A stretch of 64,000 bases of DNA from Escherichia phage vB_EcoM_SQ17. The stretch is taken from the sequence record MW882907, one strand, 5' to 3'. Every line of letters begins with the position of its first letter. Within the stretch, counting starts at the first letter, position 1. The notes under the pieces were generated by a model. That model searched no databases, was not told the DNA's origin, and saw nothing but the letters and a program-made list of their open reading frames with translations. The translations under genes were made by a program, and so were the position numbers. Below, piece after piece: positions 4,476-48,165 of this stretch.

Positions 4476-6280
4476 TCTTTACGGAGTTCAGGGTCGTTAC
4501 CCATGAGCATTTCAAATAGTTCTTTCCAATTTTCAGGAAGTTTAACTACGTCGTACACAGGGTTTTGAATCATTTCTTTATATTCATCCCGCTGAAGTGA
4601 GCCCAATCCCTTGATGTATCGAATACTATGCTTAGGCAGTGTATCTTTAGCTTCTTCATACTCAGCTACAGTATAAAACCATTTTTGAGTTTTGCCAATT
4701 TGTGCAATAATTACAGGCGTTTTAACAAAGCGAATACGTCCTTGTTCAAACAATTCAGGCCAATTACTAAAGAAAGCAAGCAAAGCCGGGTAAATACTTC
4801 CAAGACCATCATGATCGGCATCGGTCATAATTGCAATATTACGATAGTTCGTATTCTCAGCCTTTTCACCAAGAATAAGACCTGTGATAGCACAGATATC
4901 AAAGAGCTCTTTGTTCTTCATCATATCAGCATATGACATACCCCAGCTATTCATCACCTTACCACGTAATGGGAATCCGCCGTGTAGTTCACGGTCACGA
5001 ACATCAATGAGATAACCAATTGCCGAATCACCTTCTGTTAAAAACAATGTCGTATCTGCATCTTTACCGCATTGGTTAGCTTTAATATGCTTATGAACCT
5101 TAGCTTTAGTTGCCTTTTTAGCTGCTTTAGTTTCTGCAGCCTTTTCTGCCGCCAATTTACGAGCTAATGCTGCTTCAACAATAGGCATAATCAAGGCTTC
5201 GTTTTTAAGAAGTGCCTGAGCAATTTTCTTAGCATCTAATTGGATATGATTACGAATATCACCATACGTCGACGTTAAACGTTCTTTAGTCTGAGAATCA
5301 AAACGCATGTTGCTCATGTCTCTAATAAACATCAACATTGTGAGGCATTCTTTAACACGAGCTTTAGTGACTTCAATACCCTTATATTTCTTTTTAATGC
5401 CGGGCAAAAGATGTTCGCAGATATCATCCATTACACATTCAACATGATGACCACCATTTTTAGTATGAATGTTATTCACATAAGTTAAATGACGGAAGCC
5501 GTCTGGTGATGTTGTGAATGCTATAGAGACTTTATCATTTTCTTGAATGATGTTATCTTCGCCAAATTGTTTAGCAAATCGTTTAAAATTACCATCAACC
5601 TTTTTACCATTAAATGTGAACTTGATATCAGGATAAACGACTGCCAATGTTTGAAGTCGGTCCAAAGTAATATCTAAATAAATTTGAGATAAATTATGCT
5701 CTTCAAATGAAGAGAAATCAGGAGTGAAGATTACTTTAGTGCCTTTACCTTTAGATTTCTTAGAAGACCATGATTTGTTTTCCATTCCGTTTGAACAGTT
5801 AACAGTGATTTCATTTTCGCCATCTGATGTGATGCCTGTAAACAACGTAGAGAAGATATTAGTTAAACTACTCCCGACGCCGTTCATACCACCGGTCTTA
5901 CGTTCAGAGTCATCACCAAAGTTACCACCGGCCTTTGGAATAGTCCAGGCAGCTACAGGACCTGGAATCTGTTCACCATTTTGGTCGGTGACCATTGCTT
6001 GAGGAATACCACGTCCGTTATCTTCAACAGAAACTTGATTATTTTTAATTTGCACATCAATTTTATTTGCAAACTTAAATGATGTACGAATAGCTTCATC
6101 AACCGAGTTGTCAATAATCTCATCGATTAATTTAACCAGACCAGGAACATATTCAACTTGTTGATATTTACCAAACAAAAAACGCTCGTGGGCTTCTTTA
6201 GCAGAAGAACCAATATACATACCACTACGTTTCTTAATATGTTCTACATCCGACAATACCTTAATTTCATTTTTAATCAT
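4460..6280 (-). CDS. 39: DNA topoisomerase II large subunit (GyrB-like), uninterrupted 39+60 fusion
   Basis: 606 aa; N-terminal KKRSGMYIGS GyrB signature, GHKL ATPase region, Toprim FLTEGDSAIGYL; length equals T4 gp39 plus gp60 without the bypass element. Confidence 0.9.
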   Translation of the reverse strand: MIKNEIKVLSDVEHIKKRSGMYIGSSAKEAHERFLFGKYQQVEYVPGLVKLIDEIIDNSVDEAIRTSFKFANKIDVQIKNNQVSVEDNGRGIPQAMVTDQNGEQIPGPVAAWTIPKAGGNFGDDSERKTGGMNGVGSSLTNIFSTLFTGITSDGENEITVNCSNGMENKSWSSKKSKGKGTKVIFTPDFSSFEEHNLSQIYLDITLDRLQTLAVVYPDIKFTFNGKKVDGNFKRFAKQFGEDNIIQENDKVSIAFTTSPDGFRHLTYVNNIHTKNGGHHVECVMDDICEHLLPGIKKKYKGIEVTKARVKECLTMLMFIRDMSNMRFDSQTKERLTSTYGDIRNHIQLDAKKIAQALLKNEALIMPIVEAALARKLAAEKAAETKAAKKATKAKVHKHIKANQCGKDADTTLFLTEGDSAIGYLIDVRDRELHGGFPLRGKVMNSWGMSYADMMKNKELFDICAITGLILGEKAENTNYRNIAIMTDADHDGLGSIYPALLAFFSNWPELFEQGRIRFVKTPVIIAQIGKTQKWFYTVAEYEEAKDTLPKHSIRYIKGLGSLQRDEYKEMIQNPVYDVVKLPENWKELFEMLMGNDPELRKDWMLG

Positions 6281-15780: not shown

Positions 15781-16017
15781 TTAACCACCTATTTGTGTAG
15801 GCGTAAACATTGCTGCGTTCTTGGTCTTCCAGTCAGCAGCATCAGAAACTACAGTAGAATATGCTGCCTTTTCTGATGGAAAGATTTGGTAATGAGAATC
15901 CGCAATCCGATGTTCGTTTGAATAAATCTCAAACGGCACAGAAACTTCCATACCTTTAACTTCTTTGCCTTCACCGGCAGGATGCGTAAAGGTTTTGATG
16001 TTTACATAACCACCCAT
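15781..16017 (-). CDS. soc: small outer capsid protein Soc
   Basis: 78 aa; GYVNIKTF ... HYQIFPSEKAAYSTV matches remembered T4 Soc. Confidence 0.85.
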   Translation of the reverse strand: MGGYVNIKTFTHPAGEGKEVKGMEVSVPFEIYSNEHRIADSHYQIFPSEKAAYSTVVSDAADWKTKNAAMFTPTQIGG

Positions 16018-16048
16018 AATTAACTCCTTTGTTGTTTAATTACAGGTG

Positions 16049-16056
16049 TATTTATA
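16049..16056 (-). promoter_or_regulatory. T4 late promoter TATAAATA upstream of soc
   Basis: minus strand TATAAATA about 32 nt upstream of the soc ATG, followed by AAAGGAG ribosome-binding site. Confidence 0.5.
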
Positions 16057-16062
16057 ACTTAA

Positions 16063-16584
16063 TCAGTAACCATTATCTTGGCGTTCAAAGTTGTGTTGGT
16101 TTTTCAAGTAGTAAAGTTTAAAGATTTCTTCAGCAGTAAGACCCAGACCTTGGAACATATTTAGAACGAAATGTAGGATATCAATCATCTCGAATTTAAT
16201 TTCAAGCTGGTCTTCAGGAGACAGTTCATCGATACGACGATTTCGATATTCAGCATGTTGTGCCTTCCATGGCTTCCATACAGAGCTAGCGGCTTTTTCA
16301 CCATTGCTCATACCACCAAGTGAAGTCAGCAGTTCACGGAATTCATCATCAATATAATCTTTCTGATTACGCAGCCAATCAACAACATCACCAGCAGTAG
16401 CCAATTCATCAGGATGTTTGTTATGTTCAGGCTTGTCATTTGCCAGACGAACCTGTAAAGATTTCTGCATATCAAGCATTACCTGCAGTGGGTCTTTATC
16501 TTCGTGAATCAGAGCATTAAAATAAGCTTCTTCTGCTTTATCAACACCAGAAATAAGTTGTGAACATTCGTTAAAGTGCGCCAT
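16063..16584 (-). CDS. 56: dCTP pyrophosphatase (MazG-like dCTPase/dUTPase)
   Basis: start reset to MAHFNEC (ATG 16582-16584, upstream AAAGGAAA); N-terminus and DPLQVMLDMQ block match remembered T4 gp56. Confidence 0.85.
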   Translation of the reverse strand: MAHFNECSQLISGVDKAEEAYFNALIHEDKDPLQVMLDMQKSLQVRLANDKPEHNKHPDELATAGDVVDWLRNQKDYIDDEFRELLTSLGGMSNGEKAASSVWKPWKAQHAEYRNRRIDELSPEDQLEIKFEMIDILHFVLNMFQGLGLTAEEIFKLYYLKNQHNFERQDNGY

Positions 16585-16673
16585 TATTTTTCCTTTCAAT
16601 TCAGTATAAGAGAGTTTAATTCTAACATTAATTTTATAAAGCGTAATAAATAATAGGTAACTAAGGAGATATT

Positions 16674-16871
16674 ATGTTTAAACTTCCATCGTTAATCAAC
16701 GCTATTAAAGGCAATAAAAAGAAAACTGCTATCGCTGCAATAGTTGTAGGTGGCATTATTTCATGGAACTTCGGGATTGCGCCATTGTTAGTTGCCCATG
16801 GTGTTATGGTTCCTTCTGTTCCATTGGATACTGTAGTTGATTTGGCCTTTGCTATTATAGGGCTTGTTTAA
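16674..16871 (+). CDS. small hydrophobic protein, the only convincing plus-strand gene
   Basis: 65 aa with two predicted membrane-spanning segments; AAGGAG six nt upstream of ATG; lies in the minus-strand intergenic gap between gene 56 start and gene 61 stop. Confidence 0.45.
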   Translation: MFKLPSLINAIKGNKKKTAIAAIVVGGIISWNFGIAPLLVAHGVMVPSVPLDTVVDLAFAIIGLV

Positions 16872-17890
16872 ATCTTCGAATAACGAGATAATCTCATTTT
16901 AGCATGCAACCCACTTGAAATATTCTGTTTCATATATTCTAAAATTTCTTGTGGTGTTGCATTTTCTTTCATTACCATATCATTCACATCCTTTGATCTC
17001 CATGGAGCTCGGTCCCAGAACATGACACGTTCGCCTGCATCAACTAATCGCTTCATGCGAGCTATAGTATCCGGATGCCTAGGTTCATTATCCATTACCC
17101 ATACCCGACGTTCTTTAAATGGTACCACATCTAAATCTATTGAGCCGCCTGTAATAGCGATTGCATTGGGTATGAATAAACTATCAATAGGGCCTTCCAT
17201 TACCCAGACGTCTCCTTCCTTAACACGTTCAACACCATAAATTTTTGTTGCAGACTCAAACGCTTTAATAGTGATATATTTCTGAGGAGCATCTTTACGA
17301 AGTGCACGTCCTTGGAATGACTCGGCCTTCCCGTCTTTATTAAAAATAGGAATCACTAAACGTGGTTCGGGAATCTCTTTCTTATACGTACCAGGTTGAA
17401 TCTTATTGACCAATTTAGGCCATTCTAATGTGAACCATAGTCTATTCCATGATTCTTTAGGAATACACCGAGACTTAACATATTTCACAATAGGATGCTC
17501 TTCAGGCAGTTTGTCCAGACGAGAACAAGACGGCAAAGAATTTATAGTCTTTTTCTCTGGCTCCGGCTTAGCTTCAGGAACCTTTTCAATCTTTGGTTCC
17601 ATTCTAGTTTTTTCTTTACGGACTTCCATTAGATATTCGCGATAAAGCTCTTCATCATACTCTTTTAAGTATCCTGAAATTGTATTGTGGTATTGACAGT
17701 TATAGCAATGTACATTACCAGGAGTACCGCCATAATACCATCCACGAGCTTTCATTGCATCTGTCTGGGAGTCGCCACAAACTGGACATCGAAATGTTAA
17801 TTTAAATGTGCTTGAATTATTGATTTGTCTAAAACGAGGTAGGTGAGAAAACGCACGATAAGCAAATTCATTATCTATCCATTCAGCCAT
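16868..17890 (-). CDS. 61: DNA primase
   Basis: 340 aa; zinc finger CPVCGDS...CYNC and Toprim region; collinear with remembered T4 gp61. Confidence 0.9.
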   Translation of the reverse strand: MAEWIDNEFAYRAFSHLPRFRQINNSSTFKLTFRCPVCGDSQTDAMKARGWYYGGTPGNVHCYNCQYHNTISGYLKEYDEELYREYLMEVRKEKTRMEPKIEKVPEAKPEPEKKTINSLPSCSRLDKLPEEHPIVKYVKSRCIPKESWNRLWFTLEWPKLVNKIQPGTYKKEIPEPRLVIPIFNKDGKAESFQGRALRKDAPQKYITIKAFESATKIYGVERVKEGDVWVMEGPIDSLFIPNAIAITGGSIDLDVVPFKERRVWVMDNEPRHPDTIARMKRLVDAGERVMFWDRAPWRSKDVNDMVMKENATPQEILEYMKQNISSGLHAKMRLSRYSKI

Positions 17891-17929
17891 AGTATTCTCC
17901 AGAGGCCTTAAATTAATAAGGCCATCATA

Positions 17930-18424
17930 TCACAACTTATTAATATTTACTTTAATTCGCTTTCTTTTCTTGGAAGGAATTTGTTCTGGACCTTTATTTA
18001 CGACTGCACCTGTAGTTGTTCCTGATGCAATAGCTTGAGGACTACCGCCTGAATCACCAGCAACCATATCCTCAAATAAAGGGAGTTCTTTAAATATTTC
18101 TTTCTGTTGTTCTTCCGTAATGTTATAGCGTGAAGCTACAGCACTCCAGGCAGACATCATTGAGGCCATTCCATTAAGACCCGGAACAGTGCTCATCATT
18201 CGCTTCATTGAACGAACTGAAGCATGAAAAGGTGTATACGCCGCTTTCTCTTCGGGAGTAGAAGGACGTTTAAGAACACTTCCACGTTCATCGATGATTT
18301 TGGCTTCGTATGCTTTCCATTCGGTAAAAGGTTTTTGCATTAGTCGAATAAACTTATATGCATAAACAGAATCTATTGCAGTGTTAATAATACCCATAGG
18401 TACCTCCTGAGTATATTTAATCAA
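17930..18424 (-). CDS. hypothetical protein (61.1 position)
   Basis: 164 aa ORF. Confidence 0.5.
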   Translation of the reverse strand: MIKYTQEVPMGIINTAIDSVYAYKFIRLMQKPFTEWKAYEAKIIDERGSVLKRPSTPEEKAAYTPFHASVRSMKRMMSTVPGLNGMASMMSAWSAVASRYNITEEQQKEIFKELPLFEDMVAGDSGGSPQAIASGTTTGAVVNKGPEQIPSKKRKRIKVNINKL

Positions 18425-18615: not shown

Positions 18616-19275
18616 TTAACCTCGATTCATAAATGCATTAAATATTTGGTCATCAACAGAAATTTCTAATTCGACTTCAATTGCTTCAGCCTTTTCTTCA
18701 GGTGGTAATTCGTATCCACACACTACAATTTTTTCATCGATATCAAAATACACAGAAGCAATATGATTAATGTTATTTTCGGTTAAGTCTAAATCAACAT
18801 CAACATCTTTTTGACCTACACTTAAAGGATAACTAATACGGGTTATTTTATTATCTTTAACAAAGAGTCCACCAACATACTCTGTACTACGTTTGAAGTT
18901 TACACGTTTCCGAAATGAAAGATATGATGCATCTTTACCGTGAGCTCGGCTCATAGGACATAATGAATAACTAGAATAAGAGATGTCAAATCCTACACCT
19001 TCAATATGAGCCAACGTGTCATGATTAAACCAATTATAATCATATGCCAAATCCATTATATTGTAATATGTGAAAGGCACCGGATTAACATCATATGTTG
19101 TACCTTTAAAATCTGCCCAGGCAACGATTTCGTTATCTTTAACAATTACAAAAATTACACCAATATGATATCCGTTATTATTTTCATTCGGCGTTATATT
19201 ATAACATTGTGCATTAGGAAATTTACCATATTTAAATGGCGCATTTTTGTGCATATAATAAATCATATTATTCAC
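18616..19275 (-). CDS. hypothetical protein (61.2 position)
   Basis: 219 aa ORF. Confidence 0.5.
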   Translation of the reverse strand: MNNMIYYMHKNAPFKYGKFPNAQCYNITPNENNNGYHIGVIFVIVKDNEIVAWADFKGTTYDVNPVPFTYYNIMDLAYDYNWFNHDTLAHIEGVGFDISYSSYSLCPMSRAHGKDASYLSFRKRVNFKRSTEYVGGLFVKDNKITRISYPLSVGQKDVDVDLDLTENNINHIASVYFDIDEKIVVCGYELPPEEKAEAIEVELEISVDDQIFNAFMNRG

Positions 19276-19561
19276 CTGTGATTTCGGTTACGATATCTTT
19301 GTTATCGAAATTAGGGTCACAATACAAAACATAATTGTACTGCATGATACCGCCAGACTTAAGTTGTTCAACAACTTTATTAACCATATTAGGACGGTCT
19401 CGTTTAGTGATGTTCATGATATCAGAGAAGATTTGTTGTTCAACATCTTCTTGATTTGCAGTCATTGACCACTCACAGAGGTCTTTATCATAACCTGCCG
19501 TAACTGGAGCTGGTGCACATGATACTGCGAGTAAGATTGCTGCCAATGATAACCTTTTCAT
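19268..19561 (-). CDS. sp: Spackle periplasmic protein (superinfection exclusion, gp5 lysozyme inhibitor)
   Basis: 97 aa; signal peptide then AGYDKDLCEWSMTA ... SGGIMQYNYVLYCD matching remembered T4 Sp. Confidence 0.85.
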   Translation of the reverse strand: MKRLSLAAILLAVSCAPAPVTAGYDKDLCEWSMTANQEDVEQQIFSDIMNITKRDRPNMVNKVVEQLKSGGIMQYNYVLYCDPNFDNKDIVTEITGE

Positions 19562-19624: not shown

Positions 19625-19873
19625 TTATTCTTTTTCGCGAATAATAATTACTTGTTGAGGCTGCTGAGCAGATTTCTTTTCGGCAACGATAGACCAAATT
19701 AAAGTTCCAATCCAACCAACCATCGTCCAGTTAAAGAGTAAAGCTACAAAGAAGATTGCTGTTGTGCTTTTTGTGCCACGAATAAGTGCGATTACCCAAG
19801 GCAACATGTAAATGATGATTGAACCAATACCTGCGATTAAAACTGCTACTGAACTAGCCACGAATAATTCCAT
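19625..19873 (-). CDS. small integral membrane protein
   Basis: 82 aa with three hydrophobic segments. Confidence 0.5.
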   Translation of the reverse strand: MELFVASSVAVLIAGIGSIIIYMLPWVIALIRGTKSTTAIFFVALLFNWTMVGWIGTLIWSIVAEKKSAQQPQQVIIIREKE

Positions 19874-26466: not shown

Positions 26467-27627
26467 TCATTCTGGGTACCTCAAAGCGTCGTCAGAGTTA
26501 GTTATATCAATAATAGATATAGAGTTTTCTGATAACCCATTTTTAGATAACTGACGTTTATAATATCTTTCACAATATGTACACGTCGTCCCGCAGATTT
26601 CATTAGCACAATCGAAATCTGGATGTTTGAACCACCTTTTTTCTAAAAAGCCATCTAACAAAGAGGTTTCAATATTTACCGTATGTGAAAACTCAGTCTC
26701 ATTTTCAAGAGTGAAAATGGTCTCTAAAGGCTTCCATAATTCTAACAAATTACCTTCAAATTTTTCAGAAGCATAAGCTTCAAGAACTTTCAAAATGTAG
26801 TCTGTGCTACCTGTACGTCCTGAAACTTTGAATTGAGTGATACCAATATCATTATAAAGTTTCAAATCTTGAGGACGAACAAAACGAGTTCTCAACCAGT
26901 TAAATGGGTCTGTATCACGAGCTTTAATACAATGTTGCATTGGATATCCATTTAAAGATTTGGCATCATCTACTGTAACATCGGTGCTATGGAAAATATA
27001 GCAAGAGTCACGATAACTACAATGTGTTGTATACCCTTTACCAGCATTAGAACAGAACTCATTTACAAGAACTTCAAATATTATATTGTTCTTATTACAA
27101 AACTCTGCTGCACGCTTCAGGAAAGAAACTGAACGGTTCTTATGAATTCCGCAGCAGACCTTTTTGATATTATACTGGTCATGCAAGTATTTGATTTGAG
27201 TTACAGCATCGACATGTAGAATTGTTGAAACTTCAATCTCAATGTCTTTATTGACTTCACGAACAATTTCCATAACAACAGGGTTAGCGATAGTAATACG
27301 CCATACGCCTATTGACCAAAGATACTGAACATAATCCTGAATAGCTTTCTTCTTCCACTCAACTAGTTCTCTTTTTGAACCAGGATTTATCGTGTTGAGT
27401 GTATAGTTAAAGCAAATACCTAATTCGTTACAACGTTTAACGTAATCTTCTAACATCTTTTTGTCAACGTCAGGAAGCCTAAAATCAGGTCTGGCTGCTA
27501 CAAAAGCCATTTCTCTTGTAGAGCCGTATACTTCGTTTATCAAGCTATTAGGATAAGTTTTATTGAGCTCTACGATTTTATCAAGAAGAGCTAAATCAAA
27601 ATTCGTTCCGATTTTAAAAGTATTCAT
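26467..27627 (-). CDS. Cys-rich protein of unknown function, first gene of the sugar-nucleotide cassette
   Basis: 386 aa; clusters NEFCSNAGKGYTTHCSYRDSC and FDCANEICGTTCTYC suggest metal or Fe-S binding; faint resemblance to peptidase U32 signature; no T4 counterpart here. Confidence 0.55.
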   Translation of the reverse strand: MNTFKIGTNFDLALLDKIVELNKTYPNSLINEVYGSTREMAFVAARPDFRLPDVDKKMLEDYVKRCNELGICFNYTLNTINPGSKRELVEWKKKAIQDYVQYLWSIGVWRITIANPVVMEIVREVNKDIEIEVSTILHVDAVTQIKYLHDQYNIKKVCCGIHKNRSVSFLKRAAEFCNKNNIIFEVLVNEFCSNAGKGYTTHCSYRDSCYIFHSTDVTVDDAKSLNGYPMQHCIKARDTDPFNWLRTRFVRPQDLKLYNDIGITQFKVSGRTGSTDYILKVLEAYASEKFEGNLLELWKPLETIFTLENETEFSHTVNIETSLLDGFLEKRWFKHPDFDCANEICGTTCTYCERYYKRQLSKNGLSENSISIIDITNSDDALRYPE

Positions 27628-27682
27628 TTTTTACATCTCGCGTTAATTGATGCGATGGTTTTTGCAGGTCTTACTTAAATTA

Positions 27683-28084
27683 TTATAGATTCGGTTTATA
27701 TGATTTAAATGTTTCGAATTCGCCTTTATTCATAAGAGCTTTGAATTCGTCAGGACGCATAGCTTTGTCATCGATAATCCAATCATATACTGGTTTATGT
27801 GTTAGCAAATTATGGTACTTCAATCCAATGTTTGCCAAGTTCTGAATCAGACTCGGGAGAATGTCAATTGCTATACGACCAGGACCGACTGACTTCATAC
27901 CGCGAGCAGTGTAAAGCGTTATTGTATGCCCTGCATCATACAGGGCATTAATGGCAGACACCATTTCGACGTCTGGTTTGAAGTTCACGTAATCACGATT
28001 GTTATTCCACTCTGTTATACAATCATCGACATCAAAACAAAGATTAAGCATGTTTTCTACACGGTGCATTAGATTCGTTCCCAT
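27683..28084 (-). CDS. HAD-superfamily phosphatase (KdsC/GmhB-like small sugar-phosphate phosphatase)
   Basis: 133 aa; motif I FDVDDCIT (DxDxT), motif II TLYTARG, C-terminal DWIIDDK; alternative ATG at 28067-28069. Confidence 0.65.
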   Translation of the reverse strand: MGTNLMHRVENMLNLCFDVDDCITEWNNNRDYVNFKPDVEMVSAINALYDAGHTITLYTARGMKSVGPGRIAIDILPSLIQNLANIGLKYHNLLTHKPVYDWIIDDKAMRPDEFKALMNKGEFETFKSYKPNL

Positions 28085-29754
28085 TGATGAGTGATATCGC
28101 CACCGATTGGACGATAGGAAACACCAGTTTCTTTATCAGTTAGTACCCATTTACCAGGATTTTTTGTAATCAGAGTAGCCGTTACAGGTTCTGCTACGTC
28201 ATAACTAATAGAACCGTCCTGAAGTACACGGCCCATGTTACGTAATTGCTTAGTCAGAAGTTCCATACCTTTATAATATGCGGCTACCGCTTTAAGTGGA
28301 TTATTCTTGAAATAACCACCTAATGCAATCCAGATAATTGCTACAGCCAAATGATGATACTCGTTAAACGAACTCATCTTTCCATATTTGTAAACTAATG
28401 GATTGATGTTAATAGTCACATTACAAGTTGTTTCATCAATAGTAAACTGCCCCCAGGTCGGATTAGCGTTGAATTCATCATAACCTGAAACAGCATAAAG
28501 CACTTTAGCTTCATCATACAATTTTGGCCCATAAATCTTGGTTTCGCCAAAATATCCACGAGGGTCGATAAACTTGACTTCGCCATTATCAGTAATCATA
28601 GTATTACTGAAGTTCGGGTCACCATGAATAACAGAGTACTGTCCCTGAGAACGGTTATGATAACGAATAAGGTGTTCTAAAGCTTGTTTCAGCATTGGCT
28701 TCAGACGCCCAATCTTAGTGTAGTTCACATGTGTGATTTTACCAAATGAATCAATCAATGGTTGAATACTTTCACAACGATCAATAACTTTAGTATAGAA
28801 TTCTTTAGTGAAATCACGACGAACAGTTTCAGGACTTACAAAATAAGTGTCTGTGCTGAATTTCAGTGCATCTAAAATTGCATCAACAATTTGTGGACGA
28901 GCAAGACTCGATTTGGATTTAATATATTCAAATGCCGGCTTACCTTTAATGCGTTCCATTTCAAAGTTATTTTCATTAACAGAAACTAACTGAGGAACTG
29001 AATCTGATTTCACTTTAAGATACCATGAAATCTCATCTTTCTGAAGAGCTCGGCCTTGTTCGGTTAATGCGAATTTAGTTACAGTTTCTTCACCAATTTC
29101 AACGGCATTAAAACTACGATTAAGTTCACGAACTTCATGAGCCTTTTCAAGTTTAGGCATATCACCTAAATCAATTAGATTCATAAGCTCTGATTTATTG
29201 AATGCGCTGCCGTAAAGGAATTCTACGAAATCACGTCCTTTGCAGTATTCATGAATTTCCTCATCAGTAGAACCCATATAGAATTCCCAGTCTTTGAACT
29301 GATAAATTCCTACAACATTACCACCTGTTGAACCTACGTTAGTGATATTTTCGCCGTCGAAATTATATCGACATTCGTCACCCTTAACATAGATTGCGTT
29401 AACATTCCAAGACCATGAACCAAAATCAGGAATAATATCACACCAGTTAACAATTACATTATGGCCGTCTAAATCTTTGTGTAATTTAGCAAGAGCATAA
29501 GCAGAACCATACGCTTCATCAACTGTACGAATAGTCACATTGAACCCTTCTTGCTCACAATAAGCTCGAACAGTTTCAGCAAATTTTGAATGAACTACTA
29601 CAATAATTTCATCTGCGCCAAGGTCAGAATAAATTGTATACAAATTGCTCAGAATAGTGTCTTGTTTATAGTTAACAAGCACCTTAGGAATATGATGCGT
29701 TATTGGATACAAACGAGTTGCCAGTCCAGCACCAAGAATAACAGCTTTTTTCAT
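28069..29754 (-). CDS. bifunctional sugar-1-phosphate nucleotidyltransferase (N-terminal) and APH/choline-kinase-like sugar kinase (C-terminal)
   Basis: 561 aa; N-terminal ILGAGLATRL sugar nucleotidyltransferase signature; C-terminal IHGDPNFSNTMITDNGEVKFIDPRG kinase catalytic loop (HGD...N, IDxx). Confidence 0.75.
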   Translation of the reverse strand: MKKAVILGAGLATRLYPITHHIPKVLVNYKQDTILSNLYTIYSDLGADEIIVVVHSKFAETVRAYCEQEGFNVTIRTVDEAYGSAYALAKLHKDLDGHNVIVNWCDIIPDFGSWSWNVNAIYVKGDECRYNFDGENITNVGSTGGNVVGIYQFKDWEFYMGSTDEEIHEYCKGRDFVEFLYGSAFNKSELMNLIDLGDMPKLEKAHEVRELNRSFNAVEIGEETVTKFALTEQGRALQKDEISWYLKVKSDSVPQLVSVNENNFEMERIKGKPAFEYIKSKSSLARPQIVDAILDALKFSTDTYFVSPETVRRDFTKEFYTKVIDRCESIQPLIDSFGKITHVNYTKIGRLKPMLKQALEHLIRYHNRSQGQYSVIHGDPNFSNTMITDNGEVKFIDPRGYFGETKIYGPKLYDEAKVLYAVSGYDEFNANPTWGQFTIDETTCNVTININPLVYKYGKMSSFNEYHHLAVAIIWIALGGYFKNNPLKAVAAYYKGMELLTKQLRNMGRVLQDGSISYDVAEPVTATLITKNPGKWVLTDKETGVSYRPIGGDITHQWERI

Positions 29755-29795
29755 GTTGTGGTCCTCATTGGTAAGTAGGAGTATTGTACACTATT

Positions 29796-29939
29796 CTAGT
29801 TAAAGCATTCATACTTTGCTTGTAGTCCAATCATAATCCATCCGATTACAAGTGTTGGAATCATTACTGGAGCCGTTAAGCTCCAGTAGATAGTCATGAC
29901 AAGCATCAATAGTAAAAGTCCTATTGTTATTGCTTTCAT
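29796..29939 (-). CDS. small membrane peptide (47 aa), translationally coupled, absent from ORF track
   Basis: ATG overlaps the TAA of the isomerase gene (TAATG); translation MKAITIGLLLLMLVMTIYWSLTAPVMIPTLVIGWIMIGLQAKYECFN is strongly hydrophobic. Confidence 0.35.
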   Translation of the reverse strand: MKAITIGLLLLMLVMTIYWSLTAPVMIPTLVIGWIMIGLQAKYECFN

Positions 29940-30571
29940 TATTCGCCTCGTAACATGGCACCTAGTGCACCACCAGGGTGGAACTTAAGGAAGTCATTAG
30001 AGGTAAATCCACGCTCAGATGAAAGGTTGATAGCAAAAGTATCGATAAGCGCTAACAACAATGTAGTGGACATGGTCGGAGCCAGAGAATTCTCATCAAC
30101 CTCTACTGCGATGCCTGTACAGAAAGAGTAATCAAAAAGGGCTTCATTTTCTTGTGGAATGTCTGGGTTACAATGCAACAGAATCTGTTTGACGTTCGGA
30201 CGAATCATTTTAAGATGCTTAGCCACGCCTATCATTTCTTCAGTTTTACCGGAACGACTAATATGAATCAACACATCATTAGGCGCAATGAATCCTGCAT
30301 CACCGTGAGAATAATGCCCAGTGTTCAAGTACATACTCGGGATACCGAGTGAAGCAAATGTCTCAGAAGCTTTAGTTGCAATATTAGCATTCTTACCAAC
30401 ACCTGTAATAATTACTCGGCTTTCATAATTACTAAGTCCTGGGCGTCGAAGAGTTTCTAGAATAGCATTATAACGAGCAGGGTTTTGACTAATTACTTTG
30501 GCCATAGCGGCCAAAGAAGAAGCTTGTTTTATGATTGCGTCAATAGCGATAGTAATAGGAGTAGTTTTCAT
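29939..30571 (-). CDS. D-arabinose-5-phosphate isomerase, KdsD/GutQ-like single SIS domain
   Basis: 210 aa; ITGVGKNANIATKASETFASLG, HISRSGKTEE, LAPTMSTT and FHPGGALG align with the KdsD SIS domain hallmarks (GxGKSG, SNSG, LAPTSSTT, HPGGALG). Confidence 0.8.
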   Translation of the reverse strand: MKTTPITIAIDAIIKQASSLAAMAKVISQNPARYNAILETLRRPGLSNYESRVIITGVGKNANIATKASETFASLGIPSMYLNTGHYSHGDAGFIAPNDVLIHISRSGKTEEMIGVAKHLKMIRPNVKQILLHCNPDIPQENEALFDYSFCTGIAVEVDENSLAPTMSTTLLLALIDTFAINLSSERGFTSNDFLKFHPGGALGAMLRGE

Positions 30572-45845: not shown

Positions 45846-47150
45846 TGGTGTTTAACCCTATGCATGATTTCTTTATTTTTACCGAGATTAAATCCGCGTT
45901 CGTTCGGATTTCCCAAATAACCGCATGTTCTTCTTATAGTATTCATCTTTTTAGGATCACTTTCTCCACAAACTGAACAAACAAATCCGTTTTCAGTAGG
46001 AGTCATTTCATGGGTACTTCCACATGTAAAACATTTATCTACTGGCATATTAACACCAAAATAATCTAAATGTTGTGCAGCATAATCCCACACGGCCTCA
46101 AGACCTTTTAGGTTATTTTTCATATCAGGAAGTTCAACATAAGAAATGTGACCGCCTGTCGCAATGAAATGATATGGGGCTTCGCGAGAAATCTTTTCAA
46201 ACGGAGTAATATTTTCTTCTACTGAAACATGGAAACTATTAGTGTACCAGCCTTTATCAGTAACATCTTTTACACTTCCATATTTTTCGGTATCAAGTTT
46301 ACAGAAGCGATAGCACAGGTTTTCAGCAGGAGTAGAATACAAACTAAAAGCGAATCCGGTTCTTTCAGTCCATTGTTTAAGATGAATATTCATTTTAGTT
46401 AAAATTTCTTGTCCAATATCACGACCGACAAGAATATTCAATTCGTGAATACCAATGTATCCCAAAGACACTGAACTTCTACCGTTTTTAAATAACTCAA
46501 TTATATCGTCATCAGGTTTAAGACGAACACCGAATGCACCTTCTTGGTAAAGAATAGGAGCAACAGTAGCTTTAACACCCTTTAAAGAACTAATTCTGCA
46601 CATCAATGCTTCAAAACACAGATCCATTCGTTCATTGAATAATTCAACAAATTTCTGTTCATTGAATTGTGTTCCAATATAAGAATCTAACGCAATACGA
46701 GGAAGATTCAGTGTTACAACACCAAGATTATTACGTCCATCAAGAATTTCATTACCAGTCGAATCTTTCCATACACTCAAGAAACTACGGCAACCCATTG
46801 GAGAAACAGGAACAGATGAACCAGTGATAGCTTTATTATTCTTAACTGAAATAATATCAGGATACATTCTTTTGCTTGCACACTCTAGAGCAAGCTGCTT
46901 AATATCGTAGTTCGGGTCGTCTTTATAAAGATTGACACCCTCTTCAACGAACATAACAAGTTTAGGGAAAATAGGAGATATCCCATTGCGACCAAGACCT
47001 TTAATACGATTTTTCAGAATTGCTTTTTGAATCATTCGTTCAGTCCAGTCAGTTCCCGTACCAAATGTAATTGTTACAAAAGGCGTTTGTCCATTAGAGC
47101 TGAAAAGTGTATTTACTTCATCATTATATTCAGCATGAGTCGCAAATTCA
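45842..47150 (-). CDS. nrdD: anaerobic ribonucleotide reductase NrdD, exon 2 (3' splice boundary approximate)
   Basis: about 440 aa of class III RNR C-terminal region including the C-terminal zinc site CFTCGSTHEM...CSVCGE and glycyl-radical tail RTCGYLGNP; upstream limit set near the homing endonuclease stop. Confidence 0.7.
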
Positions 47151-47918
47151 TGCCCGTTTATATGAAACAACAAAATTTGGATAGTCCATAGATATGCAAC
47201 GTTCTTTTATAGTGCTAGGATGAAAATTTAGCGCTTTAGCTGCTTCTATATAAGACGTATACTTAATACCGTCAACAACCACATATTCAGGAACTTTATG
47301 AATAGTAGTCTTAATACTCAAAACAAGAGGATGAGTTTCGACTTCACTTTCAGTGCAATTTAAATATTCCGCTGCTTTTTTAAAACTTCTAAAAGTTTTA
47401 TTTTTAAGCTTTATCGATACTTGTTTTTTACTTTTTCGACTATTGATATTATTTTGCACATGTTCCTTAGATCTTCCGTTTTTAGCATAATATTCAGCTA
47501 CAGAAGATTTTATATTGTTTTTATGAGATTCGGATAACACTTTACCCTTATGAGCATCTCTTAATTTTTGAATATGTTCTTCAGTATCCGGATGCTTATA
47601 AAACTTTTTACCGCCTATGGATTTATTTAAACACTTTTTGCTATAAAAATATTTACGTATGACCTCTTCTTCATGTTTTAATGCATCTTTATAACTATCA
47701 AATGTTTTTAAAATTATCCATTTAGTAGGTGTATCAGTTTTTAAGCGTTCATTTATATACTTAGATGACGTTGTGTAAGTTTTCCAGTTTGTGGGCTTGT
47801 TTTTAATTGTTCTAAATTTTTTATAACCGATATAAATGTCACCATTAGAAAACTTAACTAAGTATGTAAATGCGTCTTTATCTTTTATTTTAGTACAACG
47901 TCTTTTTATCCATTTCAT
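47148..47918 (-). CDS. GIY-YIG homing endonuclease encoded within the nrdD group I intron (I-TevII-like)
   Basis: 256 aa; YLVKFSNGDIYIGY GIY-YIG motif; NUMOD3-like basic repeats; ATG preceded by GAGGTGAAACA; T4 has an intron ORF of similar size at this position. Confidence 0.75.
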   Translation of the reverse strand: MKWIKRRCTKIKDKDAFTYLVKFSNGDIYIGYKKFRTIKNKPTNWKTYTTSSKYINERLKTDTPTKWIILKTFDSYKDALKHEEEVIRKYFYSKKCLNKSIGGKKFYKHPDTEEHIQKLRDAHKGKVLSESHKNNIKSSVAEYYAKNGRSKEHVQNNINSRKSKKQVSIKLKNKTFRSFKKAAEYLNCTESEVETHPLVLSIKTTIHKVPEYVVVDGIKYTSYIEAAKALNFHPSTIKERCISMDYPNFVVSYKRA

Positions 47919-48165
47919 TGTTTCACCTCGTATTCATAAGATAATCTTATTTATACAAGATGACTGCTGCATGTCGCCATGCAGATTAGACTATATCTTC
48001 ATCTTTCGATGCCGGCCGTTTCGAATAGCATTAGCTTCTATTCTACACCGCTACATTCATCACGGTTAGTCGTTAGGCATTTAGTTCAAAAGAACATTTA
48101 GCACGGGATTGTCTACTAGAGAGGTTCCCCGTTTAGACCGGTTTTACATGAGCCTGAATTAAATT
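47150..48165 (-). mobile_element. group I self-splicing intron interrupting nrdD (boundaries approximate)
   Basis: nrdD reading frame is split into two ORFs separated by about 1 kb that contains about 240 nt of non-coding structured sequence (47920-48160) plus a homing endonuclease ORF; same arrangement as the T4 nrdD intron. Confidence 0.6.

Follow-up and report, generated by a model that had tools for sequence, protein, structure and literature searches.

Why one short gene should run against the direction of its neighbors is the question raised by an open reading frame (ORF) in Escherichia phage vB_EcoM_SQ17. We analyzed a 64,000-nucleotide stretch of this genome (sequence record MW882907), hereafter the window. 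It begins at rIIA, as does the standard T4 map, and a 2-kb slice around the ORF is 97.6 to 98.5% identical to listed Mosigvirus (RB69/JS09-like T-even) genomes, for example ST0 and PTK. The initial annotation had described a lone plus-strand gene with a strong ribosome-binding site, lying between gene 56 and gene 61, and this was borne out. The ORF is intact, with 65 codons and the product MFKLPSLINAIKGNKKKTAIAAIVVGGIISWNFGIAPLLVAHGVMVPSVPLDTVVDLAFAIIGLV, and it is preceded by a good Shine-Dalgarno sequence (Table 1). In Shigella phage JK45, whose record also starts at rIIA and whose copy of the 65-aa protein is 100% identical to that of the window, the first 64 kb has 120 annotated coding sequences; 119 lie on the minus strand, and this ORF is the sole plus-strand one. 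The analysis that follows establishes that the gene is real and conserved, that it keeps its position, and that its product has the character of a membrane protein. Taken as a whole, the account that we favor on balance is that of a Tevenvirinae-specific inserted late gene, which would encode a single-pass inner-membrane microprotein of the late envelope program.

Table 1. Features of the ORF, its product, and its surroundings, in window coordinates
Feature	Coordinates	Strand	Basis or remark
Candidate T4-type late-promoter octamer AATAAATA	16645..16652	+	A(-13) variant of TATAAATA; 21 nt before the ATG
Predicted late transcription start	16657..16659	+	16652 taken as -6, which would put +1 at about 16658
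Shine-Dalgarno sequence AAGGAG	16663..16668	+	5 nt upstream of the ATG
CDS of the 65-aa protein (RB69ORF029w / PHROG 2024 family)	16674..16871	+	ATG start, TAA stop; stop codon included
Residues 3-11, N-terminal amphipathic helix, then basic KGNKKK (12-17); predicted cytoplasmic	16680..16706	+	AlphaFold2
Residues 15-41, long transmembrane helix	16716..16796	+	AlphaFold2, hydropathy, published transmembrane prediction 21-41
Residues 42-61, loop, then short acidic helix 51-61; predicted periplasmic or interfacial	16797..16856	+	AlphaFold2, conservation
Gene 56 (dCTPase/dUTPase), neighbor	16063..16584	-	dUTPase_2/NTP pyrophosphohydrolase; phrog_173
Gene 61 (DNA primase), neighbor	16868..17890	-	phrog_47, E = 5e-102
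Convergent stop codons (ORF and gene 61), overlapping	16868..16871	.	4 nt; no intrinsic terminator found between

The length of the ORF is not significant by itself, as about 20 plus-strand shadow ORFs of at least 90 aa are present in the window. This ORF occupies a gap free of minus-strand genes. A search for homologues, which the initial annotation had proposed as a check, was productive: tblastn with the 65-aa protein matched 692 phage records, with coverage of 80% or more in 685, and the protein belongs to PHROG 2024, the RB69ORF029w family. We then compared the window with 18 loci from Mosigvirus, Tequatrovirus, and Gaprivervirus. The ORF is intact in all 19 sequences from these three genera, each with an AGGAG or GGAGG Shine-Dalgarno sequence, and such a sequence is found in all homologues with unchanged spacing to the ATG. 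Nei-Gojobori dN/dS values were 0.10 to 0.14 within Mosigvirus, 0.07 to 0.22 within Tequatrovirus, and 0.27 to 0.47 within the Gaprivervirus group. Between genera, dS is saturated (pS of 0.56 to 0.81) and pN is 0.32 to 0.38. Variable columns number 45, 19, and 56 at codon positions 1, 2, and 3, so that position 2 varies least. Since the ORF fills an otherwise uncovered gap, has a strong Shine-Dalgarno sequence, and is under purifying selection across genera, it is a genuine protein-coding gene.

Two other explanations for the conservation of this spacer were considered and rejected. A minus-strand promoter or origin element fits poorly with the dN/dS values, the conserved Shine-Dalgarno sequence and start codon, and the motif conserved at the protein level. 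A gene in a minus-strand frame has no start and no Shine-Dalgarno sequence, is interrupted by a stop in Gaprivervirus, and shows the wrong pattern of first- and second-position variability. As a separate observation, both the window and T4 have a nearly uninterrupted antisense frame whose third codon positions coincide with those of the ORF; it is a shadow ORF, and it could mislead gene callers.

The gene is already catalogued as a hypothetical protein. It is RB69ORF029w in RB69 and RB32ORF030w in RB51, and PHROG 2024 carries the label "unknown function." The RB69 copy, at 16061-16258 (+) and likewise between 56 and 61, is the same gene and differs from the window copy by three amino acids, with no structural difference. 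The reference genome of T4 (RefSeq NC_000866) omits the ORF, and yet an intact 66-codon homologue is present at 17738-17938 (4739-4939 of our locus L003), in a 310-bp gap between dam and gene 61. RefSeq NC_010105 of JS98 omits it as well, with a homologue at 374-574 of locus L028; other T4 and T4-like records do annotate it. A literature search on the ORF names, on unannotated small proteins of T4, and on T4 transcription start sites and ribosome profiling returned nothing relevant. What comparison of the sequences appears to add is a probable late-expression class, a distribution across Tevenvirinae with its boundary and a likely insertion history, a definition of the conserved motif, and the omission from the T4 and JS98 annotations.

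How widely is the gene distributed, and how did it come to lie where it does? The protein matches the phrog_2024 profile with E = 2.6e-27, residues 1-65 aligning with profile positions 1-65 of 65, and a profile search gave 74 related proteins. An exhaustive profile search of 1.84 billion representatives produced only nine matches, all small phage proteins of the same type, with no hint of a cellular homologue. This search, together with tblastn using the remote matches, yielded remote members in Dhakavirus (JS98), Jiaodavirus (JD18), Kanagawavirus (CIP9 and KLB31), Gelderlandvirus (Melville), Moonvirus (CF1), and Marfavirus (pzk-kv8). At least nine Tevenvirinae genera, three core and six remote, therefore carry the ORF. 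It is on the plus strand in each, it converges on the end of gene 61, and it lies between 56 and 61 wherever the record names the flanking genes. In T4, as in the window, the ORF and gene 61 converge with overlapping stop codons.

Outside this subfamily the junction looks different. Genes 61 and 56 are 14 nt apart in Krischvirus GEC-3S and 7 nt apart in Pseudotevenvirus Miller, both without the ORF, and no opposite-strand ORF is annotated at the 61-56 junction of Aeromonas phage 31.2 or Acinetobacter phage DLP2. Judged from these four outside phages, the ORF appears to be specific to Tevenvirinae and absent beyond it. The simplest reading of this pattern is that a small, independently expressed module was inserted once into the 61-56 junction, in an ancestor of Tevenvirinae. 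The arrangement resembles that of a moron: the flanking genes are adjacent in relatives without the insert, and the insert comes with its own predicted late-type promoter.

The 61-56 junction (16585-16871 in the window) is also an insertion hotspot in its own right. In T4, dam sits between gene 56 and the ORF. In Yersinia phage vB_YenM_P8, a homing endonuclease gene is found between the ORF and gene 61. A Tequatrovirus from IMG/VR (locus L012) has unrelated sequence immediately upstream of its GATAAATA box. In Jiaodavirus JD18 (locus L019, about 2196-2211), a GC-rich hairpin of the CUUCGG type, GGGGCTTCGGCCCC, separates the ORF from gene 61. A hairpin 3′ of the ORF was seen only in Jiaodavirus and is absent from Mosigvirus and T4, in which the two stop codons overlap.

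We then considered when such a gene would be expressed. Late promoters of T4 carry TATAAATA at -13 to -6 (PMC1524935). Among 50 listed T4 late sites, the octamer is perfect in 32 and carries A at -13 in 9, and clockwise transcripts of T4 are late only (PMC2988020). In RB69-type phages, A or T is common at -13 (PMC1524935). The octamer upstream of our ORF, AATAAATA, makes up 3 of the 18 published RB69 late promoters and is the commonest documented variant. It is the sole plus-strand WATAAATA in the window, where this motif occurs 6 times against 17.9 expected. The heptamer ATAAATA is about 5-fold depleted, with 6 occurrences on both strands of the window versus 30.9 ± 5.2 expected. All six (at 16049, 16646, 47948, 49203, 60060, and 60283) lie 21 to 31 nt upstream of ORF starts. 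The other five ORFs preceded in this way are soc, an I-TevII-like homing endonuclease, gene 49 (endonuclease VII), a 70-aa ORF between tk and rI, and rI; by analogy with T4, these five sites would be late promoters too. The scarcity and placement of the heptamer suggest that spurious late promoters are selected against in the early region.

The site upstream of the ORF is conserved across the family. Of 11 lineages sampled, 9 have an ATAAATA core 14 to 22 nt before the ATG, within flanks that have diverged. The octamer is AATAAATA in Mosigvirus, RB51-type Tequatrovirus, and Dhakavirus; GATAAATA in T4-type Tequatrovirus; CATAAATA in Gaprivervirus, Jiaodavirus, and Kanagawavirus KLB31; and the perfect TATAAATA in Kanagawavirus CIP9 and Marfavirus pzk-kv8. 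Gelderlandvirus (Melville) and Moonvirus (CF1) have a weaker match, ATTAAATA, with 6 of 8 positions. From the position, rarity, and conservation of the site, we consider it likely that the ORF has its own T4-type late promoter, AATAAATA. With the transcription start placed as in Table 1, the 5′ untranslated region would be about 16 nt long, with the Shine-Dalgarno sequence inside it.

This arrangement has a counterpart in the T4-type late genes of the early region, soc, gene 49, rI, and the intron endonucleases. These are also small genes among early genes, and they carry the same class of octamer 24 to 31 nt upstream, compared with 21 nt for the ORF. They keep the counterclockwise orientation of their neighbors, whereas the ORF alone is clockwise, and its promoter match is weaker in the flanks than theirs. 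Because it is clockwise, the ORF cannot be read from the upstream early and middle promoters. The initial annotation had placed the gene under separate control. The part of this claim that holds is that the gene has its own expression signals and runs against neighboring transcription; the control itself is best read, as a prediction, as that of a late promoter.

The gene could also be real and not late, being transcribed early or constitutively from an unrecognized host-type promoter, with the match to AATAAATA a coincidence. A published hidden Markov model scan of RB69 predicted 31 late promoters, including that of soc, and none upstream of RB69ORF029w. Moreover, the flanks of the site, where known late promoters have an AT-rich segment downstream of the octamer, score poorly against the RB69 late-promoter profile. 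With a position weight matrix built from the 18 published RB69 late promoters and anchored on the core motif, the octamer by itself places 16645-16652 joint 5th of about 128,000 positions; once 6 to 14 flanking positions are added, the site falls to between 22nd and 88th of about 128,000, well below the soc promoter. In addition, the base at -13 is A, G, or C, and never T, in Mosigvirus, Tequatrovirus, and Gaprivervirus, the best-sampled genera. Against this, we found no plus-strand sigma70-like site in 16000-17500, and the published early-promoter predictions for RB69 contain none for RB69ORF029w and none on the plus strand anywhere near it. The heptamer is strongly avoided elsewhere in the window, and here it is conserved across genera and perfect in two. 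On this evidence, expression at another time seems rather unlikely, and we retain late expression as the preferred reading.

A weak sigma70-like site is present on the minus strand at 16699-16671 (TTGATT-17-CATAAT), inside the 5′ end of the ORF and pointing to gene 56. It may serve as the promoter of that gene, in which case it would face the putative late promoter.

What kind of protein does the gene encode? AlphaFold2, run on an alignment of 39 sequences (mean pLDDT of 84.5, pTM of 0.61), predicted helices at residues 3-11, 15-41, and 51-61. Kyte-Doolittle hydropathy has peaks at residues 20-41 (1.93, with the maximum at residues 22-41) and 44-62 (1.80). For RB69ORF029w, a 2006 study (PMC1524935, Additional File 2) had already predicted a single transmembrane segment, residues 21-41, without a signal peptide. 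The initial annotation had called the product a two-helix membrane protein. The membrane assignment stands; the AlphaFold2 model and the published prediction replace the two helices with one transmembrane helix plus short flanking helices. Helix 51-61, with 11 residues, is too short to cross a bilayer. A hairpin topology that uses the second hydrophobic peak, 44-62, is possible. Since five lysines fall within residues 3-17, the positive-inside rule points to a cytoplasmic N terminus; combined with acidic positions 52 and 56, these lysines would favor an N-in, C-out topology.

The most conserved residues are in the predicted membrane helix and just beyond it. In an alignment of 13 members, drawn from ten lineages, W31, P37, and G43 do not vary, and N32, A39, P47, and G63 are conserved in at least 90% of members, with N32 standing beside the invariant W31 in 12 of the 13. 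Position 52 is D or E in all 13, and D56 is present in the closer genera. The conserved core, W-N-x4-P-x-A-x3-G-x3-P-x4-[DE], covers the outer half of the transmembrane helix and the loop that follows it. The N-terminal tail is variable in remote genera. Some lineages have an AxA-like motif (AIA, ALA, or ASA) before H42-G43, and others have T or F at the -1 residue. A cleaved signal peptide with an AxA-HG site was also considered; this motif is not conserved, and the published SignalP result for RB69ORF029w is negative.

Searches of Pfam, NCBIfam, PADLOC, and PDB sequences with the 65-aa protein gave no match, and Foldseek found no matching fold in the PDB. Against BFVD, Foldseek returned significant matches only to the protein's own family, including a member labeled "Holin." There is no paralogue in the window, as an hmmsearch of the family profile against all six-frame ORFs matched only the ORF itself.

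We propose the following account. A small module would have entered the ancestral 61-56 junction in reverse orientation. A late promoter dependent on gp55, gp33, and gp45 (AATAAATA, 16645-16652) would drive clockwise transcription late in infection, while the neighbors are early or middle genes. The product would be a 65-residue inner-membrane microprotein with a basic cytoplasmic N-terminal helix and one transmembrane helix; on the periplasmic side, its last residues, about 24 of them, would make up a loop followed by a short acidic helix. Single-pass microproteins such as MgrB, AcrZ, and SafA regulate larger membrane proteins; they are about 50 to 70 aa long, with one transmembrane segment and very short soluble parts. 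The ORF product is similar to them in size and in its single membrane segment, an analogy that involves no relation in sequence or fold. Its most likely mode of action would be self-association through the transmembrane helix or, through the same helix, binding to a larger membrane protein of phage or host, as with other single-pass microproteins. An Asn conserved inside a transmembrane helix is a feature associated with helix-helix association, and because such an Asn is present here, we favor a microprotein that binds itself or a partner.

The process in which this protein would take part is a matter of analogy. Our leading guess, offered as speculation, is the late envelope program, that is, lysis timing, lysis inhibition, or protection of the envelope. 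T-even phages have several envelope-directed proteins, among them T4 Imm, Sp, and the holin T with its antiholin RI, and homologues of imm, sp, and rI are in the same window. RI and T have a periplasmic globular domain, and the ORF product has none. One specific form of the proposal is that the protein is an unrecognized component of T-even late biology whose conserved Trp-Asn...Pro helix binds a phage or host membrane protein, for example the holin/antiholin machinery or a membrane-bound protease or defense protein of the host; the effect would be to tune the timing of lysis or to protect the cell late in infection. As the T4 reference annotation omits the ORF, this would amount in effect to a new T4 gene. 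We regard this version as doubtful.

The functions suggested by earlier labels have to be weighed against this account. The initial annotation had proposed an exclusion or immunity factor, that is, a protein that alters the inner membrane or periplasm to block DNA entry by later phages. The predicted product is indeed a small inner-membrane protein, its ORF is 2 to 3 kb from the annotated sp (19268-19561) and imm (19625-19873), and the gene is restricted to Tevenvirinae, most sampled members of which have sp annotated near gene 61. The family-profile hmmsearch, however, detected no sequence relation to Imm, Sp, or any window ORF, and PADLOC, Pfam, and NCBIfam offered no match. The predicted timing and the strand differ as well: imm and sp are in the minus-strand early block with predicted RB69 early promoters, whereas the ORF has a late-type promoter only and would appear late. 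Exclusion by T4 is set up within minutes of infection, and a late gene would be redundant for it. The proposed role is thus unsupported, and we consider it improbable. A holin, a pinholin, or another direct effector of lysis is suggested by a few database records, since UniProt lists the OE5505 homologue as "Holin" and phage KP1079 has a "putative holin"; a small, membrane-spanning, and probably late protein would fit such a function. But these labels come with no experimental evidence that we found, most records say "hypothetical protein," and there is no match to a Pfam holin family and no holin-like fold match beyond members of the protein's own family. The C terminus, ...DLAFAIIGLV, is hydrophobic and without basic residues, unlike the charged, hydrophilic tail typical of holins. 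In all genera examined the neighbors are the dCTPase and primase genes, with no endolysin or lysis gene, and T-even phages already possess an unrelated holin, T. A direct lytic function consequently has a similarly low probability in our judgment.

It is also conceivable that selection acts on RNA or DNA and that the ORF is incidental, the functional element being either an origin activity or a clockwise late transcript that is antisense to both gene 61 and early 61-56 read-through RNA. No intrinsic terminator-like site was found in 16000-17500, so that a late transcript would read past the ORF and into gene 61, antisense to it. T4 transcribes both strands at several sites, at different times (PMC2988020). 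In T4, the annotated origin oriA sits at the beginning of gene 56, about 1 kb away from that phage's copy of the ORF, and its activity is reportedly higher later in infection. The pattern of variation speaks against such an explanation, as the amino acid sequence is under purifying selection while synonymous sites are saturated between genera, and the Shine-Dalgarno sequence and start codon are conserved. Antisense coverage is not conserved either: the hairpin of JD18 and the homing endonuclease of P8 come between the ORF and gene 61. A role for the RNA could accompany that of the protein but cannot stand in for it, and we regard selection for RNA or DNA function with an incidental ORF as highly improbable. 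The preferred reading remains a late, single-pass membrane microprotein.

If this reading is correct, expression studies and knockout screens based on the T4 or JS98 annotation never interrogate a conserved gene that is under selection. Inversion inside the early block would give a single gene a strictly late program, with only a late promoter reaching it, and the gene would be a short and tractable candidate for a late membrane function. None of this challenges the current understanding of these phages; many small ORFs of T4-like genomes are uncharacterized, and that either strand of T4 can be transcribed late is textbook knowledge.

Three other regions of the window are of interest. At 18616-19275 (-) is a 219-aa homologue of T4 gp61.2 (phrog_3781); 61.2 of RB69 and T4 has been linked to counter-defense against DarTG. 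An I-TevII-like homing endonuclease ORF at 47148-47918 (-) interrupts the nrdD region and has a perfect TATAAATA upstream, at 47948-47955. Finally, the minus-strand genes at about 26467-30571 are annotated in JK45 as a peptidase, a phosphoheptose isomerase, a GlmU-like bifunctional protein, and an arabinose-5-phosphate isomerase; this cluster, just upstream of the DNA polymerase gene, looks like a Mosigvirus-specific sugar/nucleotide-sugar module.
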